From NCBI GenBank assembly GCA_965250285.1, contig OZ252299.1:3616001-3680000 (forward strand): a DNA stretch of 64,000 nt, in the 5' to 3' direction. The notes under the pieces were generated by a model. The model did not search any database. It had not been told where the DNA came from and saw only the letters and a list, made by a program, of their open reading frames with translations. Positions 7,083 through 22,063 of the stretch are shown here, piece after piece. This DNA comes from Myxococcota bacterium. Its GTDB lineage: Bacteria; Myxococcota_A; UBA9160; UBA4427. Positions within the stretch are counted from its first letter, which is position 1. Each line of letters begins with the position of its first letter. Position numbers and translations under genes: made by a program.

Positions 7083-7562
7083 TCAGAGACCGAGATCGGA
7101 CAGCGAGGGATGGTCGGCCGGCCGCGTAGGCGTCGTCCAAAGAAACTTGCGATCGGAAGCTTCGATCGGAAGATCGTTGATGCTGGCAATGCGTCGCATC
7201 ATGAGGCCGTTCTCGGCGAACTCCCAGTTCTCGTTGCCGTAGGACCGATACCACTGGCCCGTGTCGTCGTGGCATTCGTACGCGAAGCGCACGGCGATGC
7301 GGTTGCCGCCGAACGTCCACAGCTCTTTGACCAGTCGGTAGTCGAGCTCGCGTGCCCACTTGCGGCGCAGAAACTCAGCGATCTCGACTCGACCGGCGAT
7401 GAACTCTGCACGGTTGCGCCACGACGAATCGGAGGTGTATGCGAGCGCGACCTTGTCGGGATCCTGGCCGTTCCAGGCGTCTTCGGCCATGCGCACCTTC
7501 TGCTGTGCACTCTCGAAGTCGAAAGGGGGAAAGGGAGGTTTCGGCTGATCCATGCGCTCCAT
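7083..7562 (-). CDS. DUF1348 / NTF2-like protein
   Basis: PFPPF...[10 protein letters not shown]...WRNRAEF...[15 protein letters not shown]...[12 protein letters not shown] signature; alternative start at 7553. Confidence 0.9.
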
Positions 7563-7723: not shown

Positions 7724-8776
7724 CTATGCGCCTCGGGGCGCGATCTGCAGCGAGGCAACCCGCCCGTCTTCGAGACCGGCCACGAGCCAAGCGCCATCGG
7801 GTGACCAGGCGAGCGCCGAGACGGCCGCGCCCTGACCGGGTCGGCCCGTGATCGCATCGCCGTCGATGTCACAGATCAGCACCGTGCCGTTGGAATAGCC
7901 CACCGCGAGGGTCCGTTCGCTGGGATGAGCAGAGATCTGCGTGACCACGGCGCCATAGGCGTACCCACACTCGTCGGGCATGCGGCCCGACGGCCCATCC
8001 CCCCGACAATCCCAGGCCGTCGCGACCTCGGCGCCGCTGGCAGCAAAGAATGCCCCGTCGTGGGTCCACGCGATGGAGCGCGACTTCGAGAGGAACCCGG
8101 CCATCCGCATGTCCTTGCCGTCGGCAAGGCGCCAGCAATGAAGCTCTTTGTCCTGCATCGCCGAGGCGACGAGCCGTCCATCGGGGCTCCAGGCCACGGC
8201 GATGTGCGAGCCGTGCCACTCGAGACGTCTTGGTACGTCCAGGGTGTCGACCTGCCAAATCGAGACACCCCCGTAGTGGGCGACGGCGAGTCGTCGCGCG
8301 TCCGGAGAAAAGGAGAGCCCTGCGATCGTGCTCGGATGATCCTCGAAGCACGCGACGATGCGACCGCCGGCGTCGACGATGCGAGCGCTGCTGCCCGTTG
8401 CGAATGCGCAGACGCCTCGAGCCGAGCCCACGAGATGCTCGATCCACCCATCGTTCTGCTCATAGACCGTCTCTGCGGCCGAGCCAGTCAGCCGAAGCAC
8501 GCGCCCGTCATCCGTGCCGAACAGCGTCGCTCCACCTGCACCCGGCGCCGCGCACAGGGGCATCGCACCGAGCATCGAGACCTTCTTCGCGCTCGCAGTT
8601 CCCCGAACGCTCCAAACAGCACCTGCTCCCGTGCCGACGAGCGCCTCGTTCGAATCCCCGACGAAACACACCACGAGGGGAAACCCGTCGACGGCGTGCT
8701 CGCTGAGGCGAATGCGATCGGATACGACGCGCGCACCCGCGTCGGGCGAGACACCCGGTGCGGCTGAAACGCTCAT
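7724..8776 (-). CDS. WD40-repeat beta-propeller protein
   Basis: Repeated FSPD/WSPDG units and the [21 protein letters not shown] motif; ATGA-coupled to the upstream COG0523 gene. Confidence 0.85.
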
Positions 8777-9744
8777 TGAATCTGCGTACATGCAAGGAAG
8801 TCCTTCTCGAGGGCGATCGGATCGAGATCGCGACCGATGAAGACGAGGCGACTCGCGCGAGGCGTGTCGGCCCAGGGCGCGCCCCACGCGCTGTCCATCA
8901 CCATGTGTACGCCCTGGAAGACGTATCGACGCTCGTGGTCGGCGACGTCCAGGATCCCCTTCGAGCGCAACACGTCGACGCCGCGCTCCATGATGAAACC
9001 GCGGATCCATTCGGAGAACTTCTCGGGGCTGACCGGCGCCGTGGCGGTGATCGAGACACTCTGGATCGACTGATCGTGCTCATGGTCGTCCTCACCCTGC
9101 AAGAGGTCGGGCTCGATCTCGAGAATGCGTCCCAGATCGAATGCGCCGCAGCCCAGCACCTGGTCAAGGTCGATGTTGCTCTCGACGGTCGGATGAATGC
9201 GCGCGAAGCGATTCAAGCTGCGCACTCTCTCCGTCACCTTGACGGCCTGAGTCGAGTCGACCAGATCGGACTTGTTCAGCAGCAGCACATCGGCGAATGC
9301 GACCTGTTCGGCGGCCTCGTGCTCGGTCTCGACGCAATCGAGGAAATGGCGCGAATCGACCACAGTGACCACGGCGTCGAGATGAACCTTCTCTCGAACC
9401 TCTTCGTCGACGAAGAACGTCTGCACCACGGGCGCCGGGTCGGCCAGCCCCGTGGTCTCGATGATGATGCCGTCGAAACCCTCGGCGCGTTTGATGAGCG
9501 TCGAGATGATGCGAATCAGATCGCCTCGCACGGTGCAGCAGATGCAGCCGTTGTTCATCTCGAAGATCTCTTCGTCGGCCCCGACGACGAGCTCGTTGTC
9601 GATGCCCACTTCGCCAAACTCGTTGACGATCACGGCGTATCGCTTTCCGTGCTGCTCGTTCAGGATCCGATTCAGGAGCGTCGTCTTGCCCGCGCCCAGA
9701 TAGCCTGTGATGAGCGTGACGGGAATCTTGGCTCGTGCGTTCAT
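8773..9744 (-). CDS. COG0523/CobW-family G3E GTPase (metallochaperone)
   Basis: [35 protein letters not shown], short HEHD tract and CobW_C domain; AGGAG RBS before ATG 9744. Confidence 0.93.
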
Positions 9745-9887
9745 GTCTGGCACTCCTGCTTTCGTTCGAGGCAGTCGCCGGGCTAAGACGCGGACCGATT
9801 GAGCGGCGCACTCGCCGCCATCGACGCCCCGTTCATGCGCCTCTGCCCTCCTCGCGTTCGACTCTCATCGACCTTCGCCTTCCCCCT

Positions 9888-10805
9888 CTACGAGATCGCC
9901 GCTTCGACCTCCGGCTCGACGGCTGCTTGCAGATCGGGAGCTTCGAGGTCTTCTCCCGGCCGTACGACCGGCGGATGGCGGGGGTCATAGCTGGGCGACG
10001 CCAGCTCCTCTGCAAACTTGGCGGACCGATTCACGAGAAACTCGATCAAGTGGTTGCGAAGCGGGTAGTAGTTCGGGTCGTGGTGCATGTCGTGTCGCGT
10101 GCGTTTCGGCGAAAGCGTATTGCCGACGAACTCACACACACGCGCATCCGGGCCATTCGTCATCAACACGATCTGATCGGACAGGAGAATGGCCTCGTCG
10201 ATGTCATGCGTGATCATGAAGACCGTCTGTTTCGTCTCGGCACAGATCGTCAGCAGCTCCTCCTGCAACGCAGTGCGCGTGAGAGCATCGAGCGCGCTGA
10301 ACGGCTCGTCGAGCAGCATGATCTGCGGCTCGATCGACATCGCGCGGGCGATCCCGACCCGCTGTTTCATGCCGCCCGAGAGCTGGGCCGGCCGTTTGTC
10401 CTCGGATCCCGTCAGACGAACCAGATCGATGTACTTCTGAGTGTGCTCGCGAATCTGGTCCTTGCCCCAGTCGGGGTGCCTCGACTTCACGGCGAATGCG
10501 ATGTTCTCGCGCGCCGACATCCATGGCATGAGGGCATGGCTCTGGAAGACCACCGCGCGGTCGAGGCTCGGGCCGGAGATCTCCCGTCCACCGACCACGA
10601 CGCCGCCCGCACTCGGTTCGTCGAGACCGGCCAGGATGTTGAGGAGCGTCGTCTTGCCGCAGCCCGAGTGCCCGATGAGACACTTGAATTCACCCGGCTC
10701 GACGGTGAACCACACATCCTCGAAGATCGCGACTTCTCCGTCGCCGTCGACCGCCGGAAACCGCTTGGCGAGCCCCTCGACGCTGATACTCGCTTGAAGG
10801 CTCAT
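9888..10805 (-). CDS. cynD: Cyanate/nitrate-type ABC transporter ATP-binding subunit
   Basis: GHSGCGKTT, LSGGMKQR, LLDEPFSALD, ITHD; lies in the cynS operon. Confidence 0.85.
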   Translation of the reverse strand: MSLQASISVEGLAKRFPAVDGDGEVAIFEDVWFTVEPGEFKCLIGHSGCGKTTLLNILAGLDEPSAGGVVVGGREISGPSLDRAVVFQSHALMPWMSARENIAFAVKSRHPDWGKDQIREHTQKYIDLVRLTGSEDKRPAQLSGGMKQRVGIARAMSIEPQIMLLDEPFSALDALTRTALQEELLTICAETKQTVFMITHDIDEAILLSDQIVLMTNGPDARVCEFVGNTLSPKRTRHDMHHDPNYYPLRNHLIEFLVNRSAKFAEELASPSYDPRHPPVVRPGEDLEAPDLQAAVEPEVEAAIS

Positions 10806-10826: not shown

Positions 10827-11663
10827 CTACTCCTCATAGGTCACGAAGCCGGCCACGTAGCCGAGAGACAGGTCGAGAACCATGCCGATGACGCCGATGA
10901 ACAGGATCGCGGCGATGACGTTGGTGATCGACAGATTGTTCCACTCGTTCCAGACGAAGTATCCGATGCCCGTACCACCCACGAGCATCTCAGCCGCGAC
11001 GATGACGAGCCACGCGATCCCGATCGAGATGCGCATGCCGGTCATGATCGTTGGCGCGGCCGCCGGCAGAATCACCTTCACCGCCGTCCGCCAGGGGCTG
11101 ACCTCCAGGGTGCGGGCCACGTTGATCCACTCTCGGCGCACCGAGGCGACCCCGAAGGCGGTGTTCAGCAGCATCGGCCAGATCGAGCAGATGAAGATCA
11201 CGAACACCGACGAGAGGATCGAATCCTTGATCGTGTACAAGGCCAGTGGCATCCAGGCCAGCGGCGAGATCGGCTTCAGGACCTGAATGAATGGATCGAG
11301 GGCCCGGTACATCAGGGGTGACATACCCACGACGAACCCGAGTGGCACGGCGACGAGCACTGCCAGACCGAACCCGATCAGCACCCGAATGATCGAGAAG
11401 CCGAGCTGAATGCCGATGCCCTTGTCGTTCGGCCCAGCATCGTAGAAGGGGTCGGCGACGTGCTCCCAGACCTGCTTGCCGACCTCGAGCGGGCCGGGCA
11501 TGGCCGACGCACCTTTTGCCGTCGCGCCCATGAGCGCCGCGTACTCGGGATCCATCTCGACGGTCTCTTCTTTCGACCCGACCGATGCCTCCCAGATCAT
11601 CATCGAAACCACGAAGATGACGATCGAGAGTACGTACGCCTGCAGCTTGAGCGGAGAGCTCAC
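10827..11663 (-). CDS. cynB: Cyanate/nitrate-type ABC transporter permease (NrtB family)
   Basis: PFYDAGPNDKGIG, LKPISPLAW and WLVIVAAEML motifs. Confidence 0.85.
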   Translation of the reverse strand: MSSPLKLQAYVLSIVIFVVSMMIWEASVGSKEETVEMDPEYAALMGATAKGASAMPGPLEVGKQVWEHVADPFYDAGPNDKGIGIQLGFSIIRVLIGFGLAVLVAVPLGFVVGMSPLMYRALDPFIQVLKPISPLAWMPLALYTIKDSILSSVFVIFICSIWPMLLNTAFGVASVRREWINVARTLEVSPWRTAVKVILPAAAPTIMTGMRISIGIAWLVIVAAEMLVGGTGIGYFVWNEWNNLSITNVIAAILFIGVIGMVLDLSLGYVAGFVTYEE

Positions 11664-11672
11664 GCCTCCCCC

Positions 11673-13262
11673 CTAGCTCCGCTTGATGTCGAAGCTCTCG
11701 ATGTACTCATCGGGCTTCGTCGGATCGAACCACTTGCCCATGATCTCGTAGGTCTCGTACGTCTTGGTCGGCGGCGTCGCATAGGGGCCTTCGAGCGCCA
11801 TCTCGGTCATGAGCTTCTGGGCGTCGGTTGCGAGGTACACCTGTTCCGCGACCTTCTGGTAGTCGATGTCTTCCTTGACATAGCCCCAGCGCTTCATCTG
11901 CGTGAGGATCCAGACCGCCATCGAGTTCCAGGGGAACGGGTCGAAGTCGATCCGATCGGGCACCCGTTTGATGTTGCCCAACCCGTCTGCGTACGTGCCC
12001 GTCAGCACCTGCTCCAGGACCGTGACGGGCTGATTCAGGTAGTTCTTCGGCGCGATCGCCTTGGATATCTCCTTGCGGTTCGATTTGATCGACGCGTAGT
12101 TCGTCGAATCCATGATCGACTTCCAGAGCGCCATGAACGTATTCGGGTTCTCGTTGATGAAGGCCTGACTCGCGGCGAACGCGCAGCACGGGTGCTTGTC
12201 CCAGATGTCCTTCGTCAGCAGATGAATGAAGCCGACACCGTCGTAGACCGCCCGCTGGTTGAAGGGATCAGGCGACAGGTACCCGTCGACGTTATCGGCG
12301 CGTAGGTTGGCGACCATCTCGGGCGGCGGCAGCACTCGGATCTGAATGTCGCGATCGGGGTCGAGACCATGTTCGGCGACGTAGTATCTCAGCAGGAAGT
12401 TGTGCATCGAGTACTCGAAGGGCACCGCAAACTTGAAGCCCTTCCACATCTTGGGATCGTTCTTGTCTTTGTGCTTGGTCGATAGGACGATCGCCTGCCC
12501 GTTGACGTTCTCGACCGCGGGCATGGTCCAGGGTGCGCTCGTCGAACCCGCACCGAGCGTGATCGCCAGCGGCATGGGTGTCAGCATGTGCGAGGCGTCG
12601 TACTCGCCTGACAGAGATTTGTCGCGGGAGACCGCCCAACCTGCGGTCTTGATCACTTCGACGTCCAACCCCCACTTCTTATAGAAGCCCATCGGGTGCG
12701 CCATGATGATCGGCGTCGCACAGGTAATGGGCACGAAGCCGACCTTGAGGTTCGTCTTCTCGAGCGCCCCCTTGTTTTCCATGGCAACGGCTTTCGCCTG
12801 TTCCAGCGGGAAGATCGAGCTGATTGCGGCCAGCGCCGTCCCCGACCCGACAGCGCGAAGAAAGCTACGGCGGCTGACGTCGGTCCCGAAGATGCCCTTC
12901 AGCACGGCTGACTCGACGCACCGCTCGAGCGCCGCATCCATGTCGTCGCCCGTGGGTTCGTCCGCTTCGCTCGCGAGCGACATGCTCGACGGGGCGTCGC
13001 CCGTGGCAGGGCACATGGGATCGACGCAGTCAGGATCGAGACATTCGGGCTGGCCCGCGAGCGACGCGCCCCCAGCAAACTTGATCTGTGGCGTAGGCGA
13101 GGCTCGGTCTGGCTTGACCTCTTCGCAGACGAATCTCGAAGCGGCATCCACCTCTCCCCCGGCCATCGCCATCTGATGCTCGATCAGCGAGCGGTGACGT
13201 CCACAGGGGCACCCGTTCCAGAGAAGCTTCTTGGGATCAAAGGGGTCGGCGTAGGCAGCCAC
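11673..13262 (-). CDS. cynA: CmpA/NrtA-family substrate-binding protein, probably for cyanate
   Basis: GFVPITCATP, HMLTPMP, FEYSMHNFLLRY, HPCC; internal Tat motif SRRSFL; GGAGG before GTG 13262; directly downstream of cynS. Confidence 0.85.
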   Translation of the reverse strand: MAAYADPFDPKKLLWNGCPCGRHRSLIEHQMAMAGGEVDAASRFVCEEVKPDRASPTPQIKFAGGASLAGQPECLDPDCVDPMCPATGDAPSSMSLASEADEPTGDDMDAALERCVESAVLKGIFGTDVSRRSFLRAVGSGTALAAISSIFPLEQAKAVAMENKGALEKTNLKVGFVPITCATPIIMAHPMGFYKKWGLDVEVIKTAGWAVSRDKSLSGEYDASHMLTPMPLAITLGAGSTSAPWTMPAVENVNGQAIVLSTKHKDKNDPKMWKGFKFAVPFEYSMHNFLLRYYVAEHGLDPDRDIQIRVLPPPEMVANLRADNVDGYLSPDPFNQRAVYDGVGFIHLLTKDIWDKHPCCAFAASQAFINENPNTFMALWKSIMDSTNYASIKSNRKEISKAIAPKNYLNQPVTVLEQVLTGTYADGLGNIKRVPDRIDFDPFPWNSMAVWILTQMKRWGYVKEDIDYQKVAEQVYLATDAQKLMTEMALEGPYATPPTKTYETYEIMGKWFDPTKPDEYIESFDIKRS

Positions 13263-13375
13263 GTTGTCGGATCCTCCTTGCACGTTCGACGTGCACAGTT
13301 CGACCGGTTCTGTCGGGCCGAGTCGGTCGGGGTCATTCGACCCGCTCCGTGCCTCTCAGCCCCTCTCGCCGTTGA

Positions 13376-13819
13376 CTACCAGTTTCGGTAGGGCAGGAAC
13401 TTGCCGTTGTACGTGATGACGACTCGATCGCCCTTCGGATCTTCTTCGCGTTGAATGTCGATCTCGAAGTCGATTGCACTCATGATCCCGTCGCCGAACA
13501 TCTCGTGGACGACCGCCTTCATCGATGTGCCGTAGACCTGCATGATCTCGTAGAAGCGATAGATCAGAGGATCGGTGGGGACCGATGCGTCGAGGCATCC
13601 CTTGAGCGGAAAGTCCTGGAAAGCCGATTCCGCCTCGGGAGACAAGCCGAGGAGCGCGGTGAGCTTCGACGCTTCGGCTTCGGGCATGCTCGCCTGACCC
13701 TCGATGGCAGCCGCGGCCCAGACCTTGTCGCACCCCACCGCCTCTCCGATCTGTTCGTACGTCAGCCCCTTCGCCTTCTTGGCCTCCAGCGCCAGCGTCT
13801 TCGCCTCCTGCTTGTCCAT
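13376..13819 (-). CDS. cynS: Cyanase (cyanate hydratase), 147 aa
   Basis: PTDPLIYRFYE, FGDGIMSAIDF and GKFLPY signatures; GAGGAGG RBS. Confidence 0.96.
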   Translation of the reverse strand: MDKQEAKTLALEAKKAKGLTYEQIGEAVGCDKVWAAAAIEGQASMPEAEASKLTALLGLSPEAESAFQDFPLKGCLDASVPTDPLIYRFYEIMQVYGTSMKAVVHEMFGDGIMSAIDFEIDIQREEDPKGDRVVITYNGKFLPYRNW

Positions 13820-13902
13820 GATCACGCCCTCCTCTTCGGTCAGATCGGTGCAGAGTGAGCACGCACACGACCGATTGAGTCGTCTCGCGCGCTCGTGCGC
13901 CG

Positions 13903-13949
13903 AAAAAAAGAAAGGGCGCAACTCTCCCGCATGGGAGAGAAGCGCCCTT
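13903..13949 (-). terminator. Intrinsic terminator in the cynS 5' leader (attenuator)
   Basis: Minus strand AAGGGCGC-TT-CTCTCCC-ATGC-GGGAGAG-TT-GCGCCCTT followed by TCTTTTTTT, between the promoter and cynS. Confidence 0.9.
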
Positions 13950-13974
13950 GCCTCTCGACAGCCGTGTTGGCTGC
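13937..13974 (-). promoter_or_regulatory. ANTAR-type dual-hairpin RNA element
   Basis: P1 GCAGCC-AACAC-GGCTGT (13958-13974); P2 GAGAGGC-AAGGGC-GCTTCTC (13937-13956), a hexaloop with A1/G4 and a C-G closing pair, overlapping the terminator 5' arm. Confidence 0.8.
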
Positions 13975-13992
13975 GCCACTACAGGGCTTGGT

Positions 13993-14010
13993 AAGCACGG
14001 GTCGTGCCAA
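13993..14010 (-). promoter_or_regulatory. Sigma54 (-24/-12) promoter of the cyn operon
   Basis: Minus strand TTGGCACGACCCGTGCTT, with exact GG-N10-GC spacing, directly upstream of the ANTAR hairpins. Confidence 0.85.
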
Positions 14011-14292
14011 GTCGGAGGACCGCGCAGCCGGGCAGATGAGGTGCGTGGCAAACCAAGCCGAGTTGTGCAGGATCGGTACGCCAACGGCGGCGAACTGCAC
14101 GAAGCGAGTCGACCGAATGCCACGAAGCACGATCAGACGACGATCGCGGCAGGCTTTGTGCGCTGAACGTCGCGTGGCCCCATGCACAGCGATCTGGCAA
14201 CGCCTGCTCAGAAACCATGCCGATTCGAACAGCCGCCCACCCAACCGATCGCCCCAGCCGGTGCACTCGTGCTTGCAACCTCGATGAAGCGC

Positions 14293-14310
14293 GAGGCTTG
14301 CTTCTTGCAT
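14293..14310 (+). promoter_or_regulatory. Possible sigma54 promoter for nasT
   Basis: GAGGCTTGCTTCTTGCAT has GG-N10-GC and TTGCAT, but the -24 half is imperfect. Confidence 0.35.
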
Positions 14311-14468
14311 CGGTCGCCACGTTCAATGAACCGAGTGGACATCATCGAATCGACTTGGCCTTCGACTTCGGCCGAGAAACCGGCGAGCGCGATCCATCGA
14401 GTTCGCGACGAAGGCCAAGAACGAGCGGCACGTGCCGTTCGAATTCAAGACCTTCATGGAGGCGACGT

Positions 14469-15098
14469 GTGATCAGCGACGCGGTGACGCTTCGAGTCAT
14501 GTTGATCGACGACTGCGAAGAGCGAGCCGTAGAAGTCACGAGTCTCTTGGAATCTGCGGGGTGCGAGGTGGTAGCCATCGACTCGTCGACCGAGCATCTC
14601 GAACGGACCGTGGCCCGTGTTCGCCCCGACGTCTTGATCATCGAGCAAGAGGCGCCACGCCGCGACACGCTCGAGAGCATGCAGCGGCTGACGGAACAGA
14701 ACCCCTATCCGATCGTGATGTTTGTCGACGAGACCGACCCGGATGCGATTCGCACGGCCGTTCAGGCGGGTGTGGCGGCCTACGTCGTTCGGGGACTGAG
14801 CCCCGACCGTGTCCGGCCCGTGCTCGACGTCGCCATCGCTCGGTTCGAGGAGCATCGAAACCTGCTCGAGCGACAGCACGATCTCGAGCGAGAGCTCGAC
14901 CGCGCGCAGCAGCGCCTGACCGAGCGCCGAACCATCGACCGGGCCAAGGGCCTGCTGATGGACCACCACGGGTTGACCGAGCAGGCCGCCTACGACGCGA
15001 TGAGACGAATCTCGATGGAACGCAACCTCACGATGGGCGAGGTGGCCCGCATGACGATCGAGGCGTTGGCGAATCCCGGCCCACGACGCCGAGGATGA
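14469..15098 (+). CDS. nasT: REC-ANTAR transcription antiterminator (NasT/AmiR type)
   Basis: Receiver-like N-terminus (PIVMFVD, AGVAAYVV), a coiled coil, and ANTAR motif ERRTIDRAKGLLM...AYDAMRRISM; GGAGG before GTG. Confidence 0.9.
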   Translation: MISDAVTLRVMLIDDCEERAVEVTSLLESAGCEVVAIDSSTEHLERTVARVRPDVLIIEQEAPRRDTLESMQRLTEQNPYPIVMFVDETDPDAIRTAVQAGVAAYVVRGLSPDRVRPVLDVAIARFEEHRNLLERQHDLERELDRAQQRLTERRTIDRAKGLLMDHHGLTEQAAYDAMRRISMERNLTMGEVARMTIEALANPGPRRRG

Positions 15099-18761: not shown

Positions 18762-19883
18762 CTATGCGGCCCTCGCCTCGCGCCGAACCATCCAGAGCGA
18801 AACGCCGCCCATGGCGAGAATCAGTAGCCCGAGCCCGAGCGGCAGCAGACTCGGCACGGCCGCAGGGCAGTCGGCGGGGCAGCCCGCTTCGCCGGGATCG
18901 CAGATGCCGTCCCCGCACACCGTGTTGAAGCTCACACACATCGAGGGCTGAATCTGTTCCGGAAGGCAGGCGATGCGCGTGCAGGCGGGTGTCTCACCGC
19001 ACGTGCAGTAGTTGCAGCCGTCGAACCACGAGTCGCAGGTGCCCGGGCACTCGACTCGGCAGTCGTAGCTGCAGCCGTCGCCGTTGGCGGTGTTGCCGTC
19101 GTCGCACTCCTCGCCCGGGTCGAGCACGCCGTTGCCGCAGGGTGAGCCGAACTCGAGGCACTCGGCCGGCTCGATCTCGTTGGGCGCACAGAAGCGCTTG
19201 GTGCAGGCGGGCACTACGCCGCACTGACAGGTGTTGCAACCGTCGAACCAGACGGCGCACGAGCCAGGGCAGAGCTCGATCTCGCAGTCGGCACTGCAGC
19301 CGTCGAAGCCGACGAGATTGCCGTCGTCGCACTCTTCGCCCAGCTCGACTTCGCCGTTGCCGCAGGCCGCGAAGTCGAGGCACTCGGCCGGTTGGATCTG
19401 GTCGGGTGCGCAGAACCGCTGCGTGCACGCGGGCACCTCACCGCACTGGCAGGTATTGCAGCCGTCGAACCAGACTTCGCACGAGTCGGGACAGAACTCG
19501 TCCTGACACTCGGCGCTGCAGCCATCAAAGTCGATCAGGTTGCCGTCGTCGCACTCCTCACCGAGCTCGACCTCGCCGTTGCCGCAGAGCGCGAAGTCGA
19601 GGCACTCGGCCGGCTCGAGATCAGCGGGCAAGCAGGCGCGCTTCGTGCAGGCCGGCACGTCGCCGCACAGGCACGTGTTGCAGCCGTCGAACCAGACCTC
19701 ACAGCTGTCGGGGCAGAACTCGTCCTGGCAGCTGGCGCTGCAGCCGTCGAAGTCGACGACGTTCCCGTCGTCGCATGCCTCACCGGCTTCGACCACGCCG
19801 TTGCCGCAGACGGCGTCGGCGGCGGAGGGAACCGCGGCGAAGAGAAGCAATGCGAGCGGGATCAAGAGGAGCGACCGGGCCAT
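18762..19883 (-). CDS. Secreted, C-terminally anchored Cys-rich repeat protein (Myxococcus-type/DUF4215 repeats alternating with pacifastin-like modules)
   Basis: Signal peptide; four copies of CGNG..E.GE.CDDGN....DGCS..C plus CP..C..WFDGCN.C.CG..PACT...C; VPSL-TM-RR tail resembling an IPTL/PEP-CTERM sorting signal. Confidence 0.85.
   Translation of the reverse strand: MARSLLLIPLALLLFAAVPSAADAVCGNGVVEAGEACDDGNVVDFDGCSASCQDEFCPDSCEVWFDGCNTCLCGDVPACTKRACLPADLEPAECLDFALCGNGEVELGEECDDGNLIDFDGCSAECQDEFCPDSCEVWFDGCNTCQCGEVPACTQRFCAPDQIQPAECLDFAACGNGEVELGEECDDGNLVGFDGCSADCEIELCPGSCAVWFDGCNTCQCGVVPACTKRFCAPNEIEPAECLEFGSPCGNGVLDPGEECDDGNTANGDGCSYDCRVECPGTCDSWFDGCNYCTCGETPACTRIACLPEQIQPSMCVSFNTVCGDGICDPGEAGCPADCPAAVPSLLPLGLGLLILAMGGVSLWMVRREARAA
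18920..19808 (-). repeat. Intragenic tandem repeat, four units of about 222 bp
   Basis: The CGNG Cys codons start at 19808, 19586, 19364 and 19139 (spacings 222, 222, 225). Confidence 0.9.
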
Positions 19884-20147
19884 GGGGCCTCCGCGAAGGG
19901 CTGGATCGGGCAGAGCCCCGATCGTTCTCGGCCCCGAAGGTCTCGGCGCCATCGCTCATTCTATCGGAATGCAGCCGCCCGAGCCGAAGGATCATCATCT
20001 CTGACGCAGCGGAGTGTCGTGATGCGGATCGCGCTGGCAGCTCAGCTGATCCTTTGTGGTGTCACTGGAAACCCGATGTGTCGTTCGCGGCTGCTCGGCG
20101 AGGGCCGCGCTCGGTCTCGCGCACGCCGAAGCAGGCATGAGCGCAGG

Positions 20148-20670: not shown

Positions 20671-21864
20671 TCACTCGATCTCGCGGACGCGCTTGGGCCA
20701 GGGGTCTTCGAACGGCGCACCACGTTGCCAGGCTTCGATCTCGTCTTCGGTGCACAGGGCGCCGCGCAGCGCCGCTGCGAAGGCCTCGCGCGCGGCGGGG
20801 AGCCCGATCAGCGTGAGCTCGTTGTGCCGGTCGCCAAAGACGGGGTGCTCTGTCTCGAGCCGACCGCGAAGCAGCTCGGCTTCGCTGGGCGTCAGCTTGC
20901 CGTAGCGGTTGTGGACGGCTTCGGCCCGCCAGATACCCGTGAGCTCGAGCGCGATCTGGCTGCCCGATTGCTGCCAGAGCAGCACGTCTTCGGGGCGCGA
21001 CGCGAGCCACAGAAAGCCCTTGATGCGATACAGGCCGGTGCCGAGCTCGCGCTGGCAAGCGTCGTAGAGCCGCTGCGGATGGAAGGGGCGCGGATCGCGG
21101 AAGACGATCGCCTCGAGATCTTCGACGGTCGCCGCCTCTCGACTGAGCCCGAACTGCCTGGCGCGGCGTTCGAGCTCACCGAGGTTGGGCGCTGGCGTGG
21201 GGTCGAGCTGATCGAGCAACAGCCCCGCCTGGGCGGAGAGCCCGACCGTGGCCTGCGGCGCGAGCTTCTGCAGCGTGCGCACCTGGGCGTCGACGACCGA
21301 CCGGGGAAGCGTGTCGATCTTGGTCAGGATGATCACGCTCGCAAAGAGGATCTGCTCGGCCAAAACGCCGGCAGCGCGCGCGAGCGCAGGATCGTCGGGC
21401 ACCGTCGCTTCGCCCGTGAAGACGAGACCATCGGCGAAGTCGCGATGCAGATTCAGCGCGTCGACGGTCACGATGAAGTGGCGCAGGAAGAAGCGGTCGT
21501 CCTGCGTGAGCGCCGTGATCAGCGGCCACGGCCGGGCAACACCCGTGCTCTCACACAGAACATGCGGGGGCGCGGGATCGAGCGTCGCAATCTCGCCCAG
21601 TGCTCTCTTCGCCGAGGGATGGAGCTGTTCTCTGGCGTGGACGCCATGCAGAGCGGCTACGCGATCGACGAGACGGCCGGCCTGGGGCTTCACGTCGTCA
21701 TCCGACAGCAGCTCGGCGTCGAGGCCGAACTCGCTCAGATCGTGCACGACGAGCGCGGCGTCGCGCAGCGCGTCTTCGTGGCGCCAACGCCTGAGCAGCG
21801 TGGTCTTACCCGACCCCAGAAACCCGCACAGCACCGTTACCGGGATCTTCCTCGACGTGCTCAT
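20671..21864 (-). CDS. COG0523 GTPase, YciC/ZigA-like, with atypical metal motif
   Basis: GFLGSGKTT, ESTGVARP, AEQI.FA, TKID, RPFHPQRL, KGFLWLASRP and FGDRHNEL; the CxCC motif is absent. Confidence 0.85.
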   Translation of the reverse strand: MSTSRKIPVTVLCGFLGSGKTTLLRRWRHEDALRDAALVVHDLSEFGLDAELLSDDDVKPQAGRLVDRVAALHGVHAREQLHPSAKRALGEIATLDPAPPHVLCESTGVARPWPLITALTQDDRFFLRHFIVTVDALNLHRDFADGLVFTGEATVPDDPALARAAGVLAEQILFASVIILTKIDTLPRSVVDAQVRTLQKLAPQATVGLSAQAGLLLDQLDPTPAPNLGELERRARQFGLSREAATVEDLEAIVFRDPRPFHPQRLYDACQRELGTGLYRIKGFLWLASRPEDVLLWQQSGSQIALELTGIWRAEAVHNRYGKLTPSEAELLRGRLETEHPVFGDRHNELTLIGLPAAREAFAAALRGALCTEDEIEAWQRGAPFEDPWPKRVREIE

Positions 21865-22063
21865 GCGCGAGGCTCCAGCTTTGACCGACCCCCGGAAGCC
21901 TGAACCGGGCACTCGGCGGTCGGGACGGCAGTGTAGCCGGCGCGGGCTGAGTGCGATCCCCTGCATCGAAGCGCTCCAGAAGTTCGGCCGTGATGCGAAG
22001 CGCTGGTCGAAACCCGAATGAGCCTCGAGCACCGCGGCGATGCGACTCGGGCCCGCGTCCGCT

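Follow-up and report, generated by a model that had tools for sequence, protein, structure and literature searches.

Cyanate use in a Myxococcota bacterium appears to be gated at the level of RNA, and control of its cyanase operon by an ANTAR-type antitermination protein is well supported by the conservation and covariation of the operon's leader. The operon lies in a window of 64,000 nucleotides, the whole stretch of DNA that was analyzed, within a source genome (G000) that consists of a single 6.25-Mb contig and is 95% complete. While the antitermination mechanism belongs to a textbook class, what is particular here is a small clade of paralogues, which we call NasT2, that appears to have split from the nitrate sensor.

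An initial annotation of the window had listed, in order along the minus strand, a sigma54 promoter, two hairpins (P1 and P2), a terminator and cynS, with a divergent REC-ANTAR gene and no adjoining sensor, and each of these elements was recovered at its place. The -24/-12 promoter (13994..14009, minus strand; TGGCAC-N5-GTGCT, 10 of 11 consensus bases) is the top-scoring of 10 GG-N10-GC sites in the gap between cynS and nasT2; it stands at an equal position in all five cyn leaders of the family, with GC at -12 in four and GA in one. The cyanase gene cynS (13376..13819) scores 190 bits against a cut-off of 113 with NCBIfam TIGR00673. Behind it on the same strand, and beyond what had been annotated, are cynA (11673..13283), encoding an NrtA/CynA-family binding protein with a twin-arginine-like motif, the ABC permease gene cynB (10827..11663; TIGR01183 above cut-off), the ABC ATPase gene cynD (9888..10805; TIGR01184 above cut-off), genes for a CobW-family GTPase (8773..9753) and a WD40 protein (7724..8780, start approximate) that are both likely in the operon, and a gene of the SnoaL/NTF2-like DUF1348 family (7083..7562) that is conserved at cyn loci. 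With a cyanase and an NrtA-family ABC transporter together, this is a cynABDS operon. In CynA, the signature PITC/HPCC replaces the LTD/EK of NrtA and NasS, as it does in 35 of the 35 cynS-linked binding proteins examined, and gene context points to cyanate as the substrate of the CynABD transporter. On the plus strand, nasT2 (14469..15098) encodes a REC-ANTAR protein of 209 amino acids and has a sigma54-type promoter of its own (14294..14309, 8 of 11 consensus bases), in which GGC-N6-TTGC is kept in all four nasT2 genes. No sensor or kinase gene adjoins nasT2 or the cyn locus.

Several other features of the locus were observed. A long Cys/His-rich N-terminal extension of CynA (12940-13283) precedes the twin-arginine-like motif, and His/Cys-rich extensions occur in relatives too. 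CynA and CynB match Polyangiaceae homologues at 67-71% and 61-64%, against 59-64% and 40-47% for the family's own loci, and the comparison of sequences suggests that the cyn transporter genes were replaced behind a conserved leader and cynS. The CobW GTPase was not seen at the cyn loci of relatives, cobW and WD40 genes also lie downstream of cynS at locus L097, and two CobW-family GTPases are encoded within 12 kb of each other (8773-9753 and 20671-22032). Farther along, at 18762-19952, is a Cys-rich, apparently exported protein with repeated CGNG..E.GEECDDGN and CxxWFDGCN motifs.

The leader RNA, encoded on the minus strand, has most features of an ANTAR target. P2 (13937..13956; GAGAGGC/AAGGGC/GCUUCUC) has a 7-bp stem and a hexaloop with A1/G4 and a C-G closing pair. 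It overlaps an intrinsic terminator (~13903..13951), which ends in a U tract at 13913-13903 and has the P2 loop incorporated in its 5' arm, so that the two structures are mutually exclusive. The transcript start was placed by its position relative to the sigma54 box, and for the predicted transcript (13983-13895) folding gives -48.1 kcal/mol and a z of -5.16, with none of 200 shuffles as low. The terminator was missed by a simple scanner for such sites, probably owing to an internal loop in its stem. The second A1/G4 hexaloop close upstream that a dual-hairpin target would have is missing, as P1 (13958..13974; GCAGCC/AACAC/GGCUGU) has a 6-bp stem with a 5-nt loop, and a canonical P1 is present in only one of the five cyn leaders (G171). 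A candidate alternative P1, not previously annotated, is located at the predicted transcript start (13972..13983) with a 3-bp stem and the A1/G4 hexaloop AGUGGC (13980-13975), sharing bases with the 5' arm of P1; there is weak support from relatives, as G171 has a similar motif equally far from its promoter and G023 has one that forms no stem. An Rfam search of the leader gave no matching family, the only hit being a chance match to RAGATH-28 (E 4.2). Contigs from DNA runs X1-X3 are identical to the leader without indels, which argues solely against an assembly slip in P1, since they come from one study that is perhaps the source of the assembly. The binding of NasR to a single hairpin is about tenfold weaker, and the available part of the EutV structure preprint redefines the minimal ANTAR motif as a single hexaloop (bioRxiv 10.1101/2020.09.27.315978).

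The cyn leader was found in five genomes, four with nasT2 (G000, G027, G023 and G171) and one without it (G174). When these leaders are compared, pairing holds at 32 of 32 cells of P2, and two of its base pairs differ on both sides; 12 of 500 shuffles reach this level of pairing, and slid controls give 51-69%. For the terminator, 95% of 80 cells are paired and four base pairs differ on both sides; none of 500 shuffles has as many paired cells, and slid controls give 51-76%. Such counts, from five related sequences whose structures were drawn from those same sequences, are supportive and are not probabilities. In addition, position 3 of the P2 loop covaries with the 3' arm of the terminator (G-C, C-G, A-U). 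A1/G4 is kept in the P2 loop of four of the five leaders, and the exception, G027, has G1/G4 (GAGGGC; L012, 9696-9806). The NasT2 of the same genome (8821-9423) has Gln for a conserved ANTAR Met, and this single case possibly reflects co-evolution. P1 keeps its position in the five leaders with a different loop sequence in each, and some nitrate-gene leaders of the family also have no canonical P1. The prominence that the initial annotation had given to the atypical P1 is therefore not borne out, and the idea of a specificity code in its loop is ruled out.

Leaders of the same kind are found at nitrate genes. In G000, the nirB and nrtA leaders have canonical P1 loops (AAUGAU and AAUGAC), and the P2 loop AAGGGC is identical at cynS, nirB and nrtA. 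A genome-wide scan of G000 for P2 with a terminator gave 27 matches including these three leaders. Of the remaining 24 matches, 16 of which are G1-loop matches beyond those checked, eight were inspected, among them all seven other A1 loops, and none had a sigma54 box; only at cynS, nirB and nrtA does an A1 loop coincide with a nitrogen gene that has a sigma54 promoter. In G023 and G171, P2 with a terminator is present in two of two cyn leaders and none of four nirB/nrtA leaders, and in G163 it is present in none of three leaders; the nirB/nrtA regions of these three genomes were also read by eye. The negatives of the scanner, which overlooked two leaders visible by eye (G027 nirB and G022 nrtA), are imperfect. 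G141 has NasTS and a leader at nrtA but none at cyn. Both G163 and G141 run cyn without such a leader, and in G176, where NasTS is present, the scan detected no leader. Among cynS loci (77 of 80 scanned), seven leaders were found: three at family loci, one at L050, and three in cyanobacteria, which have no A1 and were treated as chance. At the L050 locus (682-2900; Binatia), glnA and a gene for a REC-ANTAR protein whose acceptor residue is Ala precede a leader with two canonical hexaloops (AGCGUU and AAAGGC) and a terminator, and then come cynABD-cynS; by its layout the locus is a putative independent link between ANTAR proteins and cyn genes. As a side observation, the sigma54 boxes of the family's nitrate genes mostly read TTGA or TTGG at -12, not TTGC (G000:C1 upstream of 5888872 and 5898324, and nirB/nrtA of relatives), and the nasT2-linked cyn promoters keep TGC.

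NasT2 has the REC and ANTAR domains and the RNA-contact residues of a NasT protein and is nested among NasT sequences. It keeps the RNA-binding residues R153, K160, E171, Y175 and M183, and the residues contacting RNA in EutV, as given in the available part of the preprint (bioRxiv 10.1101/2020.09.27.315978), are likewise kept. At the phosphoacceptor site, where the initial annotation had pointed out a Glu, Glu59 indeed occupies the alignment column of the acceptor Asp in Rv1626 and EutV. NasT2 differs in this from a phosphorylated ANTAR response regulator, and the locus encodes no cognate kinase. On its own this Glu is hardly distinctive, as 16 of 150 NasT-family representatives also carry it. 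The hallmarks of NasT2 are rather the combination of an IIEQ[DE] acceptor site, an insertion of seven residues in the coiled coil and the lack of a NasT1-type C-terminus, of which the first two are invariant in six of six clade members. In the predicted monomer (mean pLDDT 88), the insertion lies within one unbroken helix. In a quick tree of 126 aligned homologues, 115 have Asp with a short linker, and the six with Glu and the insertion are grouped together; in a tree of 34 chosen rows, NasT2 forms one clade (support 96/88) with long branches. NasT2 proteins are 46-51% identical across relatives, and NasT1 and NasT2 are 51-53% identical. A profile search of 1.84 billion representatives found Glu with the insertion in two of the best 150 matches, one being G027's own protein, and Asp with the insertion in one, and a metagenome scan with the NasT2 alignment found neither Glu plus insertion nor a cynS neighbor in the best 80 of 296 loci. 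A PDB sequence search with NasT2 returned no entry named NasT.

The C-terminal end that is absent from NasT2 is the M[AS][DE]LL-like motif of NasS-linked NasT, for which, solely from this co-occurrence, we infer a role in NasS binding. The NasT proteins of G180 and G175 (L232 and L233), a divergent orphan clade without nasS, also have no such motif. In G027, on the other hand, a nasT1 without nasS runs straight into nrtA (L119, 8584-9558) and its product keeps the motif; life without NasS is therefore not unique to NasT2.

Following the suggestion of the initial annotation, the genome was searched for nasS, and a canonical nasT1-nasS1 pair was found elsewhere in G000, in a nitrate cluster with the order nirB-nasA-nasT1-nasS1-nrtABCD-porin. 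The genome has two ANTAR genes and three NrtA-family genes, and nasS lies beside nasT1, 2.27 Mb from nasT2, which makes NasT2 an extra paralogue. Across the class, cynS is present in eight of 225 genomes and ANTAR genes in 29. A nasT2 divergent from a leader and cynS was found in four genomes of one family, representing three genera. Of the ANTAR loci in the class, 28 were classified: all four NasT2 genes flank cynS, and 19 of the 24 others flank nasS. Thus, unlike NasT, which is encoded with nasS and targets nitrate/nitrite assimilation genes, NasT2 is beside nasS in none of four cases and linked to cynS in all four. A NasS profile recovered a true NasS in G174 (636 bits) and none in the drafts G027, G023, G171 and G163, whose best scores (315-419 bits) all belong to NrtA. 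The three nasT2 genomes among these are drafts that are 91-96% complete, two of them from one genus, and G174 is 88% complete; with comparison genomes that are drafts 88-96% complete, and kin, the pattern is suggestive. NasT2 is the only ANTAR protein found in G023 and G171, and none was found in G163. G174 has the cyn leader with NasT1-NasS1 only, and its DUF1348 gene, facing away from cynS, stands where relatives have nasT2-DUF1348, which suggests that nasT2 was secondarily lost.

The sequence comparisons indicate that NasT2 likely binds P2 and so allows read-through into the cyn operon. As to what controls it, the reading we prefer, to which we give about an even chance, is that NasT2 is a paralogue that escaped from NasS and freed cyanate use from nitrate induction, with nitrogen starvation as the input. 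Nitrogen starvation would fire both divergent sigma54 promoters through an NtrC-type activator, and transcription of the operon would halt at ~13903 until NasT2 accumulates. NasT2 would be active by default, like NasT in nasS mutants, and by binding P2 would block the terminator, so that cynS-cynABD would be expressed with or without nitrate in a feed-forward loop. In this history, cyn would once have been a NasTS target and a nasT duplicate would have freed it from nitrate induction; NasT1 may perhaps read the same P2 in G000, adding a nitrate input. In the portions available of studies in Paracoccus, loss of nasS leads to constitutive nitrate assimilation (PMC3795266), and nasT is under NtrBC control (PMC5424462). 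G000 has an NtrB/NtrC-like pair, although its NtrC-like protein scores 519 against a family cut-off of 559 bits and the NtrC boxes in the cyn gap are weak (best 9 of 12). An AmiC-like or NIT sensor was found neither in G000 nor in common among the four nasT2 genomes. Asp-to-Glu changes can partly activate receivers, and phosphomimicry has been disproved for some pseudo-receivers, according to the accessible text of PMC12632262. Further points weigh against the preferred reading. A default-on antiterminator would be nearly redundant, given that G163 and G141 run cyn without a leader, and that NasT2 has nonetheless been retained for long hints at an additional input. Furthermore, NasT1 could serve the cyn leader, given the leader of G174 with NasTS only and the identical P2 loop in G000.

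In a second explanation, a new signal, for which cyanate is the most plausible candidate, acts on NasT2 by way of its pseudo-receiver or of a partner, and NasT2 would replace the cyanate-responsive activator CynF at the RNA level; we regard this as possible but distinctly the more tentative proposal. The initial annotation had likewise proposed gating at the RNA level by an unknown signal, and while conservation and covariation uphold the gating, such a signal is possible without being the most likely reading. The strongest points for it are that NasT2 occupies the divergent place that CynF has at the cyanate-induced cynABDS of Pseudomonas pseudoalcaligenes, as described in the available part of PMC6627978, and that both protein and terminator are retained, at 46-51% identity, although leaderless cyn operons exist. 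The invariance of IIEQ[DE] and the insertion also fits, and no CynF/CynR-type regulator gene is present at the cyn locus. Nor did the G000 genome give a full-length match to three putative CynF-like PAS-domain sigma54 activators, taken as queries from upstream of other cyn operons. A candidate partner is DUF1348, whose gene lies directly behind nasT2 in G023 and G171, and a nasT duplicate rewired from the nitrate sensor to cyanate, or to a partner such as DUF1348, is conceivable, if somewhat doubtful. However, NasT2 has no sensor domain, and DUF1348 is the only candidate sensor gene common to the four loci. A dedicated sensor role of DUF1348 is weakened in turn by its truncation to ~42 residues in G027 while NasT2 is intact, by its presence beside cynS in G163, G141 and nine of 77 non-family loci, none showing a NasT-like gene, and by the best 120 of its 285 longer homologues, none of which is a fusion of DUF1348 to ANTAR.

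DUF1348 is near cynS in seven of the eight cynS-containing genomes of the class, and it adjoins cyanase genes irrespective of their regulator in the class, in cyanobacteria and in Polyangiaceae (window 7083-7562; L013 8085-8591; L117 3629-4153; L086, L090, L097, L100-L103 and L108). This distribution resembles that of an accessory gene of cyn operons in general more than that of a sensor specific to NasT2. A structure of the family is on record (2IMJ), and the papers naming the family concern fungi, as far as their available text goes.

A third explanation, which we consider unlikely, is that the operon simply belongs to the Nas regulon, with NasT1 reading the cyn leader or NasS1 holding NasT2, and with nitrate or nitrite needed for expression. 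The initial annotation had held that a canonical nasS elsewhere, with nitrate-only induction, would reduce the locus to this. The first half agrees with what was found, namely the canonical nasT1-nasS1 pair and the P2 loop shared by nirB, nrtA and cynS, which, together with the G174 leader served by NasTS only, is the strongest evidence for this explanation. The similarity of NasT1 and NasT2 is in line with it, as is the nitrite transport ascribed to cyanobacterial CynABD in the available part of PMC6627978. However, NasT2 and the cyn leader persist in G023, G171 and G027, where NasS was not found, which speaks against ordinary membership; G023 and G171 have neither nitrate-gene leaders nor nasTS, and the position of DUF1348 in G174 suggests secondary loss of nasT2. 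Finally, that NasT2 is no activator of the cyn leader at all, being a decaying duplicate or a competitor damping NasT1, has the long branches of the clade and the Met-to-Gln change of the G027 copy in its favor but is very improbable, given the intact frame in G000, the kept promoter and RNA-contact residues, and two genomes that keep the terminator with NasT2 as their only ANTAR protein found.

Cyanobacterial cyn genes are controlled by NtcA. In E. coli, cynTSX likewise encodes a cyanase, but has another transporter and no leader and is controlled at the DNA level by the LysR-type CynR, according to the available part of PMC6627978. The same source describes cynFABDS of P. pseudoalcaligenes CECT5344, which resembles the present locus in having cynABD and cynS, a sigma54 promoter and a divergent regulator, whereas here the regulator is a predicted RNA-binding antiterminator instead of a sigma54 activator, cynS comes first, and the leader has a terminator. 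Closest are the NasS-NasT systems of Paracoccus denitrificans (PMC3795266, PMC5424462) and of nirBD/NalA in Pseudomonas putida (PMC10783516), which, as far as the available text goes, share the REC-ANTAR protein and the A1/G4 hexaloop overlapping a terminator. They also have nasT under nitrogen control, and G000 itself uses NasS-NasT in its nitrate cluster. In contrast, the genes targeted here are those for cyanate uptake and cyanase, and P1 has no canonical hexaloop. The regulator is a separate, nasS-unlinked paralogue that carries Glu and an inserted heptad, has an altered C-terminus and persists where NasS was not found. EutV/EutW, AmiR/AmiC and NasR (PMC3369931, PMC7496416, bioRxiv 10.1101/2020.09.27.315978), as described in the parts available, share a P2 that overlaps the terminator and conserved RNA-contact residues, and AmiR also has a pseudo-receiver, as NasT2 does. 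Compared with these dual-hairpin systems, the present one has one canonical hexaloop, a coiled coil one heptad longer, and no kinase, AmiC-like or NIT partner found. A literature search that covered few subscription papers returned no ANTAR-controlled cyanase operon and no such NasT paralogue, and the terms 'cyanate', 'cyanase' and 'cynS' do not occur in seven supplementary files of PMC3369931.

The reach of these results is limited by the familiar class of mechanism and the small size of the clade. Nevertheless, they add an RNA-level route to the known controls of cyanate use and tie the uncharacterized DUF1348 family, for which a role in cyanate handling is a testable lead, to cyanase operons. 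The differences of NasT2, namely its Glu, heptad insertion and C-terminus, provide hypotheses for the site at which NasT contacts NasS. With a nitrate-gated NasT and a cyanate-linked paralogue in one genome, the organism offers a natural experiment in regulon rewiring. If NasT2 were cyanate-responsive, it would be a cyanate switch that acts post-initiation; if our preferred reading is true, cyanate use in these bacteria would no longer depend on the presence of nitrate.
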